Below the pieces are notes generated by a model. It made no database searches and was not told the DNA's origin. It was given only the letters and a program-made list of their open reading frames with translations. The position numbers and the translations under genes are program-made. Of a stretch of 11,119 bases of DNA, positions 2,248-8,907 are shown one piece after another (position 1 is the first letter of the stretch; each line of letters starts with the position of its first letter). Origin of the DNA: a virus (lineage: Duplodnaviria > Heunggongvirae > Uroviricota > Caudoviricetes); the IMG/VR virus record IMGVR_UViG_3300031354_000001, positions 1 to 11,119 of that record; one strand, given 5' to 3'.

Positions 2248-2465
2248 CGTTCTTTTAAAAATCTTTCATAATCTAATATGCCTTGCTCATAAAACCATTG
2301 CTCCCATGTTTCCCATTCATAATCATGGTTGCTTTCTATATATTCTATAGCAGACTGATTACTTTTTATATAGTCTTTAATACCAGCATAGTAATATTTT
2401 AAACCTTTTTCTTCTACGTCTCTTGGTTTAAAATTTATATCTATTTCCATATTAGTGCTATCCAA
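2244..2465 (-). CDS. Hypothetical protein
   Basis: 73-aa ORF with a 4-nt overlap onto the ligase start. Confidence 0.65.
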   Translation of the reverse strand: MDSTNMEIDINFKPRDVEEKGLKYYYAGIKDYIKSNQSAIEYIESNHDYEWETWEQWFYEQGILDYERFLKER

Positions 2466-2584
2466 AATAGGTGATATCCGAAGTTAAAGTACAATCCTAT
2501 TTCGCCATTATGTTTATATGGTATAATACTATATTGTTTATTTAAGCCACAAGAATCATCGCAATGTCCGAAATCAAACTTCAT
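2441..2584 (-). CDS. Hypothetical protein; possible divergent member of the beta-strand family at 2828..3489
   Basis: Likely start MKFDFG (ATG 2584). C-terminal EIGLYFNFGYHLFWIALIW resembles EIDFNIELGPLLVWFSIIL of 2828..3007. Confidence 0.6.
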   Translation of the reverse strand: MKFDFGHCDDSCGLNKQYSIIPYKHNGEIGLYFNFGYHLFWIALIWK

Positions 2585-2831
2585 TGTAGCCTCTCCAACA
2601 TATGTCACATAGAATATCACTTCCACGTAGTTTCACGTCACTTTTATTTTTATGGCACTTATCGCACTTTAAGTTTCCGTTCTTCATTGACTCTATAAAA
2701 TCAATAAATCCTTCGACACCTTCTTCATGGATGCCTCTAACTGTTGCATACCATTCATCTCTATTTTTGTTATCAAGTGTAGCAAGATAAATTTCTGACA
2801 ACTCTAAAAGTCTATTTTTACTATAACTCAT
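2574..2831 (-). CDS. Hypothetical protein with a C-terminal C4 zinc ribbon
   Basis: CDKC-x15-CDIC; ATGA overlap with the upstream gene. Confidence 0.7.
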   Translation of the reverse strand: MSYSKNRLLELSEIYLATLDNKNRDEWYATVRGIHEEGVEGFIDFIESMKNGNLKCDKCHKNKSDVKLRGSDILCDICWRGYNEV

Positions 2832-3007
2832 AGTAGATTCTTATTGTGTAAAATAATTGAAAACCAAACTAAAAGTGGACCGAGTTCAATATTGAAATCT
2901 ATTTCTTCGGACAACTTAGACCAAGCTATTGTCGGACCAATTCCCCAGATATCCCAATAGAAACAAAACCCTAATTCAAATTTCCAGATTCTAATTCTTT
3001 TTGTCAT
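2828..3007 (-). CDS. Small aromatic/Gly-rich beta-strand protein (array member 4)
   Basis: Not in the ORF track; hand-translated 59 aa MTKRIRIWKFELGFCFYWDIWGIGPTIAWSKLSEEIDFNIELGPLLVWFSIILHNKNLL; ATGA overlaps at both ends. Confidence 0.8.
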   Translation of the reverse strand: MTKRIRIWKFELGFCFYWDIWGIGPTIAWSKLSEEIDFNIELGPLLVWFSIILHNKNLL

Positions 3008-3180
3008 AACTTATTCCTATTAATGTTAATACTAAATCCAATATCCAATATGCCTATACCGATATTAAAATACACATATCCAATCAACTTATTCCAATAA
3101 ATATCTACTCCAAGACCTATAATAGAGGTGCACCACGATAAAGATAATTCGAATCTCCAAATTTTAATTGTCTTTTTCAT
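3004..3180 (-). CDS. Small aromatic/Gly-rich beta-strand protein (array member 3)
   Basis: Not in the ORF track; 58 aa MKKTIKIWRFELSLSWCTSIIGLGVDIYWNKLIGYVYFNIGIGILDIGFSININRNKL; aligns without gaps to 2828..3007. Confidence 0.8.
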   Translation of the reverse strand: MKKTIKIWRFELSLSWCTSIIGLGVDIYWNKLIGYVYFNIGIGILDIGFSININRNKL

Positions 3181-3338
3181 GGAACTTCCTTATAAAAATA
3201 ATCAATTGAAAATAACAATGGCCCTAAATATAATGAAAACTTCAATGATGGATATTCCAGATAGTTACATAATTGAAATTCGACCCCAAAACCACATCTC
3301 TTTAAATTAATATTGGAATAAAAAAGAAATCTATTCAT
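3177..3338 (-). CDS. Small aromatic/Gly-rich beta-strand protein (array member 2)
   Basis: Likely start MNRFLF (ATG 3338); GFGVEF...FSLYLGPLLFSID matches the other members. Confidence 0.75.
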   Translation of the reverse strand: MNRFLFYSNINLKRCGFGVEFQLCNYLEYPSLKFSLYLGPLLFSIDYFYKEVP

Positions 3339-3489
3339 AGTATGTATCCCACCAAATTTCAATTGGTCCTAGCCACAATGAAAATAGGAATGTATTCTTT
3401 ACAGTAAATGAATAATGAAAGCCTAATCCGAAAAGTTTCCAAGAATAAGCGATTCCAAAGCTACCATTTTTAATCAATTGTATTAACAT
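3331..3489 (-). CDS. Small aromatic/Gly-rich beta-strand protein (array member 1)
   Basis: Not in the ORF track; 52 aa MLIQLIKNGSFGIAYSWKLFGLGFHYSFTVKNTFLFSLWLGPIEIWWDTYYE; shares the GLG and LGP motifs. Confidence 0.75.
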   Translation of the reverse strand: MLIQLIKNGSFGIAYSWKLFGLGFHYSFTVKNTFLFSLWLGPIEIWWDTYYE

Positions 3490-3763
3490 CTAATATCCTC
3501 CTATATTCGTTGGATTCTGTATCATCGACAATCTCAAATACTTTACTTTCCAGCCAATCTCTCCATCCTGGATGCTTCTTAAACCAGTTTTGTCCAAGAA
3601 GATATTGCCCAATAATACAGAAATCCAATATCTTGACAGTGTTAATAACAATTTCTGGTTTTATTGGTGGACAATAATAGTCTCCTGGCTCTCCTGGCAC
3701 AAATGTATAGTATATATCGGCAGCACAATTATATTTGCCAATTTTAAAATCAATTATCATCAT
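3470..3763 (-). CDS. Hypothetical protein
   Basis: 97-aa ORF in the overlapping gene run; no motif recognised. Confidence 0.7.
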   Translation of the reverse strand: MMIIDFKIGKYNCAADIYYTFVPGEPGDYYCPPIKPEIVINTVKILDFCIIGQYLLGQNWFKKHPGWRDWLESKVFEIVDDTESNEYRRILDVNTID

Positions 3764-6070: not shown

Positions 6071-6099
6071 TTTATTCTCCAATAATAAAAGTAATACAG

Positions 6100-6172
6100 T
6101 CCGGCAGGGAGGAATCGAACCTCCGACCCATGCTTTATAAGAACATTGCTCTAACCACTGAGCTACTGCCGG
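6100..6172 (-). tRNA. trnI: tRNA-Ile, anticodon TAT (reads AUA)
   Basis: Cloverleaf CCGGCAG-TA-GCTC AGTGGTTA GAGC-A-ATGTT CTTATAA AGCAT-GGGTC-GGAGG TTCGATT CCTCC-CTGCCGG-A; no encoded CCA. Confidence 0.93.
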
Positions 6173-6176
6173 ATAG

Positions 6177-6250
6177 TGATCCCGGTGGGACTTGAACCCA
6201 CGGCCTACGGATTAAAAGTCCGTTGCTCTAGCCAACTGAGCTACGAGATC
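6177..6250 (-). tRNA. trnK: tRNA-Lys, anticodon TTT
   Basis: Cloverleaf GATCTCG-TA-GCTC AGTTGGCTA GAGC-A-ACGGA CTTTTAA TCCGT-AGGCC-GTGGG TTCAAGT CCCAC-CGGGATC-A; no encoded CCA. Confidence 0.95.
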
Positions 6251-7675: not shown

Positions 7676-7926
7676 GATAGAACTCCATGACTGATTGACT
7701 TATTTATTTGGTTTAAACAATAATCACTTAGATTAATTAACGACACTCTTTTGGAAAACTCTTCAGGGCCAAGAGCATTGAGTGTCTTTACGATTGCTTC
7801 ATTGATCCACTTATTATAAAGAATCCGAACACCTTTAAAATCGAGCACAACACTCTTTGATTTTAAAATTTGTTGCCGTAATTCTTTGCCAGATTGTGGT
7901 GACTGGTTAATTAATGTAAACAGCAT
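7672..7926 (-). CDS. STAS-like domain protein (DUF4325 type)
   Basis: GKELRQQI...VVLDFKGVRIL...INEAI...GPEEFSKRVSLINL pattern; 84 aa, stand-alone. Confidence 0.75.
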   Translation of the reverse strand: MLFTLINQSPQSGKELRQQILKSKSVVLDFKGVRILYNKWINEAIVKTLNALGPEEFSKRVSLINLSDYCLNQINKSISHGVLS

Positions 7927-8104
7927 CTATCTCTTCAAATCCAAGTTGTTTCATTGCTTCTAATCTTTTGTATCCGTCAATTATCCTATTATTTTTATCG
8001 ATAATAATTGGTTTTTGTTGCCCATTAGCACTTAATGATATTATTATATCGCCGTATTTTGGAGTTACTCTATGTCTTGGTACTTTTATTTTACTTATTA
8101 TCAT
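7907..8104 (-). CDS. Stand-alone ParB/Sulfiredoxin N-terminal domain protein (copy 4)
   Basis: SLSANGQQKPIIIDKNNRIIDGYKRLEAMKQLG: G..P.(DG)xxR.A motif; 65 aa; no HTH. Confidence 0.85.
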   Translation of the reverse strand: MIISKIKVPRHRVTPKYGDIIISLSANGQQKPIIIDKNNRIIDGYKRLEAMKQLGFEEIDAVYIN

Positions 8105-8351
8105 TGCTTTTCAATTTGTAATAGGAATATGCTTCGGTGTCTTCCATAAAATTACAATAAACATATTCCTTTTTTAGTTCTTTCAAAGCTTCAATTCTGT
8201 TGTATCCGTCAACAAGTCTCATTTCTTTTGTTACTAGAATTGGCCTCATTTGCCCCAGTTCTTTTAGACTTTTTACGAGTCTATTAAAAGATCGTATCCT
8301 TCTTCGATAATACCATTCAGGTATTTTAATATCAACGATTCTTATTTTCAT
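8091..8351 (-). CDS. Stand-alone ParB N-terminal domain protein (copy 3)
   Basis: LVKSLKELGQMRPILVTKEMRLVDGYNRIEALKEL; 86 aa. Confidence 0.88.
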   Translation of the reverse strand: MKIRIVDIKIPEWYYRRRIRSFNRLVKSLKELGQMRPILVTKEMRLVDGYNRIEALKELKKEYVYCNFMEDTEAYSYYKLKSNDNK

Positions 8352-8795
8352 ATAACAACTTCCACTTCGATTGTCTTATTGCCATTTTCAATTGCCTCGA
8401 ATATTGGTTTCACATTATCAAATGGAACATATTTTCCTTTATGCTTTACCACCGACGGCCTACGCTTAGTATCAGTTAGCTTGTATGGACCATCGAGTTT
8501 AATATCAGCGATTCTTATTCTTTCCATTCTTCCTCTTCCAGCGTTTTGGATGTTTCTCAATTTTAGTTAAAATAGGTTGAAGGTCACATGCCTTATCACA
8601 ACGCACACAATAAACGTATTTAATGCCTAATTGTTTCAATGCCTCGATTCTACCAAAACCATCGGCAAGATAGTTGTTAATATCAATAGTGATTGGAATA
8701 ATTTGACCGAGTTTTTGCAATGATTCAACTAATTGTGAACTAGGCCATTTCTTATTATACCATTCAGGTATTTTAATATCAGCGATTCTTATTTT
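8310..8795. repeat. 39-bp direct repeat (8310..8348 and 8757..8795), one mismatch
   Basis: ataccattcaggtattttaatatca(a/g)cgattcttatttt, encoding KIRI(V/A)DIKIPEWY. Confidence 0.9.
8348..8527 (-). CDS. Degenerate ParB N-terminal-like protein (copy 2)
   Basis: Start MERIRIADIK (ATG 8527, GAGG RBS); DGxxR is replaced by FDNVKP; 59 aa. Confidence 0.65.
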   Translation of the reverse strand: MERIRIADIKLDGPYKLTDTKRRPSVVKHKGKYVPFDNVKPIFEAIENGNKTIEVEVVI

Positions 8796-8820
8796 TTCCA
8801 TTCTTCCTCTTCCAGCGTTT
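8498..8820. repeat. 49-bp direct repeat (8498..8546 and 8772..8820), one mismatch, period 274 bp
   Basis: tttaatatcagcgattcttatt(c/t)tttccattcttcctcttccagcgttt; contains an RBS and start in one frame and a stop in another. Confidence 0.92.
8505..8801 (-). CDS. Stand-alone ParB N-terminal domain protein (copy 1)
   Basis: Start MEKIRIADIK (ATG 8801, GAGG RBS); LVESLQKLGQIIPITIDINNYLADGFGRIEALKQLG. Confidence 0.88.
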   Translation of the reverse strand: MEKIRIADIKIPEWYNKKWPSSQLVESLQKLGQIIPITIDINNYLADGFGRIEALKQLGIKYVYCVRCDKACDLQPILTKIEKHPKRWKRKNGKNKNR

Positions 8821-8907
8821 GACACATTTCTTCATTGTCTTCATTGCTCGAAGGTAGACCAATGGCAAATGAGACTTGTAAACGAATTGTCCATTAATTA
8901 CTGGCAT
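8779..8907 (-). CDS. Small basic hypothetical protein (42 aa)
   Basis: Not in the ORF track; MPVINGQFVYKSHLPLVYLRAMKTMKKCVKRWKRKNGKNKNR; fills the gap. Confidence 0.55.
   Translation of the reverse strand: MPVINGQFVYKSHLPLVYLRAMKTMKKCVKRWKRKNGKNKNR

Follow-up and report, generated by a model that had tools for sequence, protein, structure and literature searches.

The window analysed here, the first 11.1 kb (11,119 nucleotides) of the IMG/VR virus record IMGVR_UViG_3300031354_000001, carries on its minus strand an array of four tandem open reading frames (ORFs), designated A to D, which, to judge from their sequence features, are most likely real, separate, translationally coupled genes. Their products of 52, 53, 58 and 59 amino acids are, by protein comparison, old, diverged paralogs and belong to a new family that matches no catalogued one; two of them, A and D, are predicted with moderate confidence to fold as five-stranded antiparallel beta meanders. 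The explanation that we favour, with a probability of roughly one half, is that the family is an autonomous early accessory binder, acting in host takeover or counter-defence, which was multiplied and diversified by tandem duplication. The array comprises the following elements:

3331..3489, minus strand: gene A, 52 amino acids (P0001), first in the array, with its ATG at 3489.
3496..3502, minus strand: Shine–Dalgarno sequence AGGAGGA, 6 nt upstream of the gene A ATG, a strong ribosome-binding site.
3177..3338, minus strand: gene B, 53 amino acids from the ATG (P0002); an alternative TTG start at 3362 gives 61 amino acids.
3004..3180, minus strand: gene C, 58 amino acids (P0003), with an ATGA overlap with B.
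2828..3007, minus strand: gene D, 59 amino acids (P0004), with ATGA overlaps with C and with a downstream 85-amino-acid gene.

The four ORFs tile positions 2828–3489 back to back, so that the arrangement of tandem, coupled small genes proposed in an earlier note, written by a model from the DNA letters and a list of ORFs alone, is borne out. Neighbouring units overlap by 4–8 nt, leaving no intergenic room, and the start of gene A overlaps the 3′ end of an upstream 97-amino-acid gene by 20 nt. The ATG of gene B lies within ATGAATAG, forming an 8-nt overlap across the gene A stop codon, with GGTGGGA 8 nt upstream. Direct reading of the sequence shows that the junctions between B and C, C and D, and D and the next gene are all ATGA start/stop overlaps, and that AAGGAAG and AGGAA precede C and D, respectively. 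Each unit starts with its own ATG at a conserved N-terminus (MKK.IKIW / MTK.IRIW in C and D). From the strength of the Shine–Dalgarno sites, the host would seem to begin translation in the Shine–Dalgarno-led way. That three of the four genes are missing from the ORF list used for the note fits a cut-off of 60 amino acids, which only the TTG-extended form of B reaches. The note had also described a G(L/I/F)G motif followed 15–20 residues later by LGP, or by IGI in one copy; the motifs are present in A–D, with IGI in place of LGP in gene C, and their spacing is 19–22 residues.

Several lines of evidence suggest that these frames are genes. When the 662 nt of the region were shuffled 20,000 times, four ORFs of at least 52 codons on that strand never arose, and three arose in only seven cases. 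A codon-usage log-likelihood trained on the long genes of the genome is positive and favours the annotated frame in all four cases. Between C and D, codon identity at positions 1, 2 and 3 is 0.60, 0.60 and 0.41, and 13 of 24 conserved residues are encoded by differing codons (for example AGT and TCA for Ser, TTG and CTT for Leu), a pattern that marks the protein and not the DNA as the conserved entity. It is on the tiling of the ORFs, the Shine–Dalgarno sequences, the shuffling result, the positive frame scores and this codon-position pattern that our judgement of the genes as real is based. Other readings of the region were also considered. The antisense ORFs of the plus strand at 2844–2960 and 3128–3310 have lower in-frame codon scores than A–D; Tandem Repeats Finder and a repeat finder show no repeat with the period of the genes, which rejects a DNA tandem repeat or iteron array; and the region has no match in Rfam that would make it a known non-coding RNA.

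With regard to base composition, the 500-nt bin 3001–3500, which overlaps genes A–C, has the lowest G+C content in the window (28.4%). AT skew is positive in only four such bins of the window, of which this one is the strongest (+0.12). Both features could reflect a composition rich in I, F, L, N, K and Y or a different origin.

The relationship between the four proteins is most evident for C and D, which align without gaps at 41% identity (expect value, E, 2e-12). In leave-one-out tests with hidden Markov models (HMMs), in which each ORF was compared with 2,000 composition-matched shuffles, the real score was equalled by three shuffles for A and by none for B, C and D. The earlier note had suggested the frame 2441..2584 as a possible fifth member, a suggestion that did not hold up: 186 of 2,000 shuffles equal its score, and no profile, including the later ones, recovers this ORF. 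A fifth paralog was found elsewhere in the genome:

G000:C1:29762-29899 (= L003:18762-18899), plus strand, outside the window: 45 amino acids (...NWRTWRLCFDFYISYEFEEIGIVLGLGPIYLYFAILK).

This gene lies between a dNMP-kinase-like and a nucleoside-deoxyribosyltransferase-like gene, labels that rest on Pfam matches below the curated cut-offs, and shares an ATGA overlap with the latter, which is downstream. With a profile built only from homologs of other phages it is recovered at E 5e-4, ranking second among the ORFs of the genome, and it is more like the single-copy homologs of related phages than like C and D.

To find these homologs, the search was anchored on the ATP-dependent ligase gene, located 0.6 kb downstream of the array. 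Phage-sized contigs carry hundreds of ligase homologs with 45–54% identity to it, and the neighbourhoods of these ligase genes were searched in six frames with profiles of the family. Four homologs were recovered, one per contig, on contigs whose ligases are 52–54% identical to that of this phage (BLASTP):

L011:7673-7822: 49 amino acids, with a TAATG overlap with the preceding gene.
L017:12288-12431, plus strand: 47 amino acids, with an ATGA overlap with the following PD-(D/E)XK-like gene.
L013:7519-7678, plus strand: about 53 amino acids, with its start in an ATGA overlap with the preceding 306-amino-acid gene.
L097:3006-3179: 57 amino acids, directly after a sigma-factor gene and a 124-amino-acid gene.

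The L097 homolog is an independent match, with E 8e-7 among 48,852 ORFs, and a profile of the four window proteins only gives L097, L017 and L011 the first three places among the same 48,852 ORFs. In the reverse direction, an HMM of the four outside homologs only places B first among the 1,162 ORFs of the genome (E 1.4e-6), and B is the copy nearest to the homologs of other phages. The L017 homolog fits exactly between two called genes, yet it was missed by the gene finder of the source. The L013 homolog is apparently frameshifted: ‘MKIGRFEFNC’, a beginning like that of C and D, lies in one frame, whereas the remainder lies in the next; the break could be either an assembly indel or the mark of a decaying copy. 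The earlier note had treated a lack of homologs as grounds for dropping its proposal; homologs do exist, and with the copies in four related phages and the fifth paralog the family now has nine known members of about 45–60 amino acids, the intact outside homologs being free-standing genes of 47–57 amino acids. The single copies of the relatives and the fifth paralog stand at differing genomic positions next to differing genes. About ten other close relatives have no copy of the family within 10 kb of the ligase gene, and no members were detected in 80 more distant ligase neighbourhoods from IMG/VR, five whole IMG/VR records and four extra contigs.

Two of the related contigs also encode, at L011:7539-7673 and L097:3507-3632, an extremely acidic Asp/Trp-rich peptide of 41–44 amino acids (...DDWEDDVDDDDWDD...), in each case close to the copy of the beta mini-protein and adjoining a tRNA gene.

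Searches of the major databases provided no assignment. Pfam has no match for A–D at E up to 10, or for all nine members at E up to 1, and this includes the cell-wall/choline-binding hairpin repeat (CW_binding_1). Against PHROGs, all members together gave only two single-member matches (E 0.035 and 0.43); none of the nine matched the PADLOC anti-phage defence profiles; and a sequence-profile search of PDB returned only CRABP2 at E of about 1.6–2, which is noise. A word-seeded search of 5.8 billion proteins with P0004 and a five-sequence profile found only proteins of this contig and P0128. A full HMMER search of 1.84 billion representatives found only the window proteins and the spurious P0006 and P0007, and no fused form of any length; P0006 and P0007 are eukaryotic proteins in which many copies of a ‘FSVYIGIQTITLKD’ repeat sum to a spurious score, and they were rejected as relatives. 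IMG/VR scans with the 85-amino-acid neighbour, the coat protein and peptide patterns of the family revealed no relatives, and a literature search found no description of the family, which the earlier note had likewise failed to recognise. We ascribe this blindness of the databases to small genes being left uncalled, as in L017, or frameshifted, and to a length of 45–60 amino acids being too short for significance in searches of billions of sequences.

Structure prediction with AlphaFold2 gave for gene D a model with five strands (residues 2–7, 10–16, 22–30, 35–43 and 45–52) and a mean predicted local distance difference test score (pLDDT) of 81.7, and for gene A the same five-strand order with a pLDDT of 78.3. 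The conserved G-x-G and L-G-P motifs are located at or beside the breaks between strands 2 and 3 and strands 4 and 5, and they would thus fix the turns of the meander. In D, the residues KII / FLFF / IPIW / IFIL alternate with TRR / EGC / GGTAS / EDNEG, so that one face of the predicted sheet is nearly all aliphatic or aromatic while the other is polar or small, and the last strand is hydrophobic on both faces. Consistent with this, the hydrophobic moment across the members is, at beta periodicity, about double its value at helical periodicity. The amphipathic all-beta sheet envisaged in the earlier note is therefore supported by the models and the moments, whereas its count of three or four strands is replaced by a prediction of five.

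Hydrophobic residues make up 53–55% of A–D and aromatic ones 16–27%, and the highest 19-residue Kyte–Doolittle mean of each protein is in the range of 0.85–1.51. In agreement with what had been claimed from the letters alone, A–D have neither a signal peptide nor a long hydrophobic helix; inspection of the N-termini and hydropathy, with no dedicated predictor run, also revealed no export signal, no unbroken hydrophobic run beyond the initial residues and no lipobox at the Cys residues. No holin-type transmembrane helix was identified in A–D, where acidic residues alternate inside the hydrophobic stretches and AlphaFold2 predicts strands only. The outside homologs carry alternating acidic residues just before LGP (E-x-D-L-G-P), a pattern that seems suited to a strand and would be very unfavourable for a membrane helix.

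In comparisons with known structures, Foldseek found nothing in PDB at E 0.001 or better, and in an exhaustive structure alignment the best result (Z 5.7) is to stretches of five strands within GFP-like barrels and START-like sheets, a generic and common arrangement. A search of the ESM Atlas by features returned only anonymous viral clusters with scores of at most 0.90. In shape, the array protein resembles the BFVD phage protein A0A6J5NRS0 (60 amino acids), a similar five-strand meander (template modelling, TM, score 0.80; root-mean-square deviation 2.7 over 59 columns), and viral clusters of 53–69 amino acids in the ESM Atlas (TM score about 0.7); for these phage proteins the Foldseek E is 6e-3 at best with 9–21% identity, and kinship is unproven.

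The genome in which the array resides, that of an uncultured tailed phage, is a linear contig of 75,119 bp with 37% GC and an estimated 78% completeness (CheckV). It encodes a family-A DNA polymerase (PolA), a P22-type coat protein and a GpA-type terminase, the latter with 23% identity to its best match in a cultured phage, and a megablast search of phage GenBank with the whole window as query revealed no match and no near relative. Nearly all genes of the window are carried on the minus strand, and Pfam matches among them comprise NUDIX, an ATP-dependent ligase OB domain, a dCMP-deaminase-like protein, a DenV-like glycosylase and a sigma factor. The neighbours of the array are thus non-structural genes of DNA metabolism and regulation, with no lysis genes among them. 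The strongest minus-strand sigma-70-like promoter match is at about 10673–10646, and since no minus-strand terminator-like site was seen between it and the array, the array can be taken to belong to a single long operon of non-structural genes on the minus strand; within 2828–3489, no minus-strand promoter- or terminator-like sites were seen. The early timing of this operon is inferred. Other features of the window, all on the minus strand, are:

3470..3763: upstream flanking gene, 97 amino acids, not a member of the family.
2574..2831: downstream flanking gene, 85 amino acids, translationally coupled to D, with CxxC...CxxC (CDKC...CDIC).
2441–2626: small ORF, 47 amino acids from an ATG or 61 from a GTG, with HCDDSCG and an aromatic tail.
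6099–6250: adjacent phage tRNA genes, tRNA-Ile (anticodon TAT) and tRNA-Lys (TTT).
809–1018 and 1008–1214: adjacent paralog pair of 68–69 amino acids ending in ...VDHFCEV...
7907–8825: short adjacent ParB-N-like genes.

By eye, the 97-amino-acid gene resembles genes for 101–102 amino acids in the related phages, and the array seems to be placed between homologs of genes that stand closer together in those relatives; this resemblance would make the array an insertion or expansion downstream of the 97-amino-acid gene. The 85-amino-acid gene looks zinc-ribbon-like by eye, with no Pfam family and no relative in the IMG/VR scan. The small ORF at 2441–2626 occupies the gap between this gene and a 73-amino-acid gene, matches nothing anywhere and is outside the beta family. 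The two tRNAs each decode A-ending codons, and the genome is AT-rich. The VDHFC pair (46% identity, E 1e-19) is a second tandem duplication of the same operon, and the two ParB-N-like copies compared (7907–8104 and 8091–8351) share 39% identity (E 2e-12).

Taken as a binder, the family protein could work as follows. A single sheet with an exposed hydrophobic face would be unstable alone, and this face is most likely buried, either against a second copy or a paralog in a small beta-sandwich, or against a host protein. A face-to-face dimer, homomeric or mixed, or docking on a host protein would be the simplest solutions. The presence of a single copy in the relatives, in varied places and with no constant neighbour, suggests that the protein acts alone and is not a subunit of a fixed gene system. 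The four-gene array would then be a lineage-specific tandem duplication followed by divergence, an expansion that matches the other duplicated small-gene families of the operon, namely the VDHFC and ParB-N-like pairs.

Several observations weigh against this explanation. The coding scores of the four genes, 0.16–0.29 and 0.12–0.19 per codon, compare with true-gene means of 0.45 and 0.42 and are near or below the true-gene 5th percentiles (0.18 and 0.23), which may be due to the extreme composition of A–D, with L, I, F, G, Y and W accounting for 55% of residues. Only nine members of the family are known and that of L013 is frameshifted, so that some copies may be decaying. The AlphaFold2 alignments contained 4 (D) and 9 (A) sequences, and the pLDDT of the five models varied over 59.7–81.7 and 64.8–78.3, respectively. 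Finally, the grand average of hydropathy (GRAVY) of A–D is positive (0.17–0.48); together with such a hydrophobic content, this is not typical of soluble proteins and points rather to membrane association or aggregation.

The last point bears on an alternative that we regard as unlikely, in which the proteins are membrane-active beta oligomers. Their sheets would attach to the cytoplasmic membrane of the host or enter it and there assemble, alone or mixed, into a barrel-like pore or surface patch, leading to depolarisation, a superinfection block or receptor masking. Besides the composition and GRAVY values, this alternative gains from the fully hydrophobic face of the sheet, from the last strand with its two hydrophobic faces, and from the likeness of the model to five-strand parts of larger curved sheets and barrels, generic as this is at Z of at most 5.7. 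However, the proteins lack a signal peptide, lipobox or transmembrane helix, their predicted strands of 5–9 residues are short for spanning a bilayer, and the genes are situated among DNA-metabolism and regulatory genes, not lysis genes; moreover, beta-barrel proteins are not known to enter the inner membrane of bacteria from the cytoplasm. Very unlikely is the modular form of this idea, whereby copies, A–D mixed or of one kind in the relatives, would complete one another's sheets into a closed barrel or pore that faces the lipid of the host membrane, with no need for the usual export and beta-barrel assembly (BAM) machinery. The results do not support the barrel, pore or fibril assembly suggested in the earlier note. 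Its likening of the proteins to pieces of a beta-barrel recalls the split or oligomeric barrels of TolC, the anchors of trimeric autotransporters and alpha-haemolysin, in so far as short amphipathic beta units could in principle complete a barrel only as an oligomer. Those barrel proteins differ in being exported or secreted and in the greater length of their membrane-spanning strands, while the array proteins have no export signal, shorter predicted strands and no sequence match or significant fold match to them.

It is also rather improbable that A–D are obligate subunits of one hetero-oligomer, such as a pseudo-symmetric beta-sandwich or ring, with translational coupling serving to produce them in equal amounts. 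All four genes are indeed tightly coupled, and their divergence is old, yet all four copies are intact. The start/stop overlaps, however, also join the array to flanking genes outside the family, so that coupling is not peculiar to A–D, and other families of the operon have been duplicated too. Because the relatives hold a single copy, the ancestral protein must work without paralog partners, and a four-part form of the hetero-oligomerisation raised in the earlier note fails as the basic mode of the family. That the region is non-functional, consisting of decaying duplicates or chance frames without a selected product, has a slim chance of being correct: the low codon-usage scores, the tiny family, the three ORFs below 60 amino acids and the frameshifted homolog would all be explained, but not the failure of every shuffle to yield four such ORFs, the Shine–Dalgarno sites and start/stop overlaps, the third codon positions being the most diverged with residues kept through synonymous changes, or the retention of homologs with the same motifs in four other phages with ligases of only 50–54% identity. 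Hardly credible, lastly, is a single larger repeat protein split into four ORFs by frameshifts or assembly errors. The head-to-tail units are of similar length, indel errors are possible in metagenome contigs and the L013 homolog looks frameshifted; nevertheless, each unit has its own ATG at the conserved N-terminus and an upstream Shine–Dalgarno sequence, each stop overlaps the next start exactly, the homologs are free-standing genes, and the HMMER search produced no fused protein.

The closest known counterpart of the array is found in T4-type phages, which contain variable clusters of small genes, termed ‘hyperplastic regions’ (PMC2839356, PMC4122927). Like the array, these regions are blocks of rapidly evolving small genes without a known function that share one strand in the early or non-structural part of the genome, and related phages differ in whether, where and in how many copies they carry such genes. 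The array shows traits of this type in its adjacent, diverged paralogs on the same strand, its variable copy number and position, and its non-structural location. In contrast to T4, where promoter/stem-loop (PeSL) cassettes occur, none flank the units of the array, which are joined by start/stop overlaps in one operon, and with its P22-type coat protein, GpA-type terminase and PolA this phage is not T4-like. Thus, while the family is new, the type of array, a private array of small paralogs in a phage accessory region, is already known and common in phages. A functional parallel could be Gp2 of phage T7, a 64-amino-acid phage inhibitor of a host protein that is not an all-beta meander. It is similar to the array protein in size, early context and autonomous action, but this is an analogy only, with no sequence or fold match.

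These results add a small all-beta family to the ‘dark matter’ of phages and show how such families escape notice, since this one came to light only when syntenic regions of related phages were searched in six frames with profiles. With several duplicated small-gene families in one operon, this phage is a good case for studying the diversification of accessory genes by tandem duplication. Should the proteins turn out to be amphipathic sheets that assemble by themselves, they would offer small scaffolds of natural origin and perhaps a novel class of effector aimed at the host, and if the modular barrel reading were true, they would represent a new phage route to permeabilise or re-wire the cell envelope.

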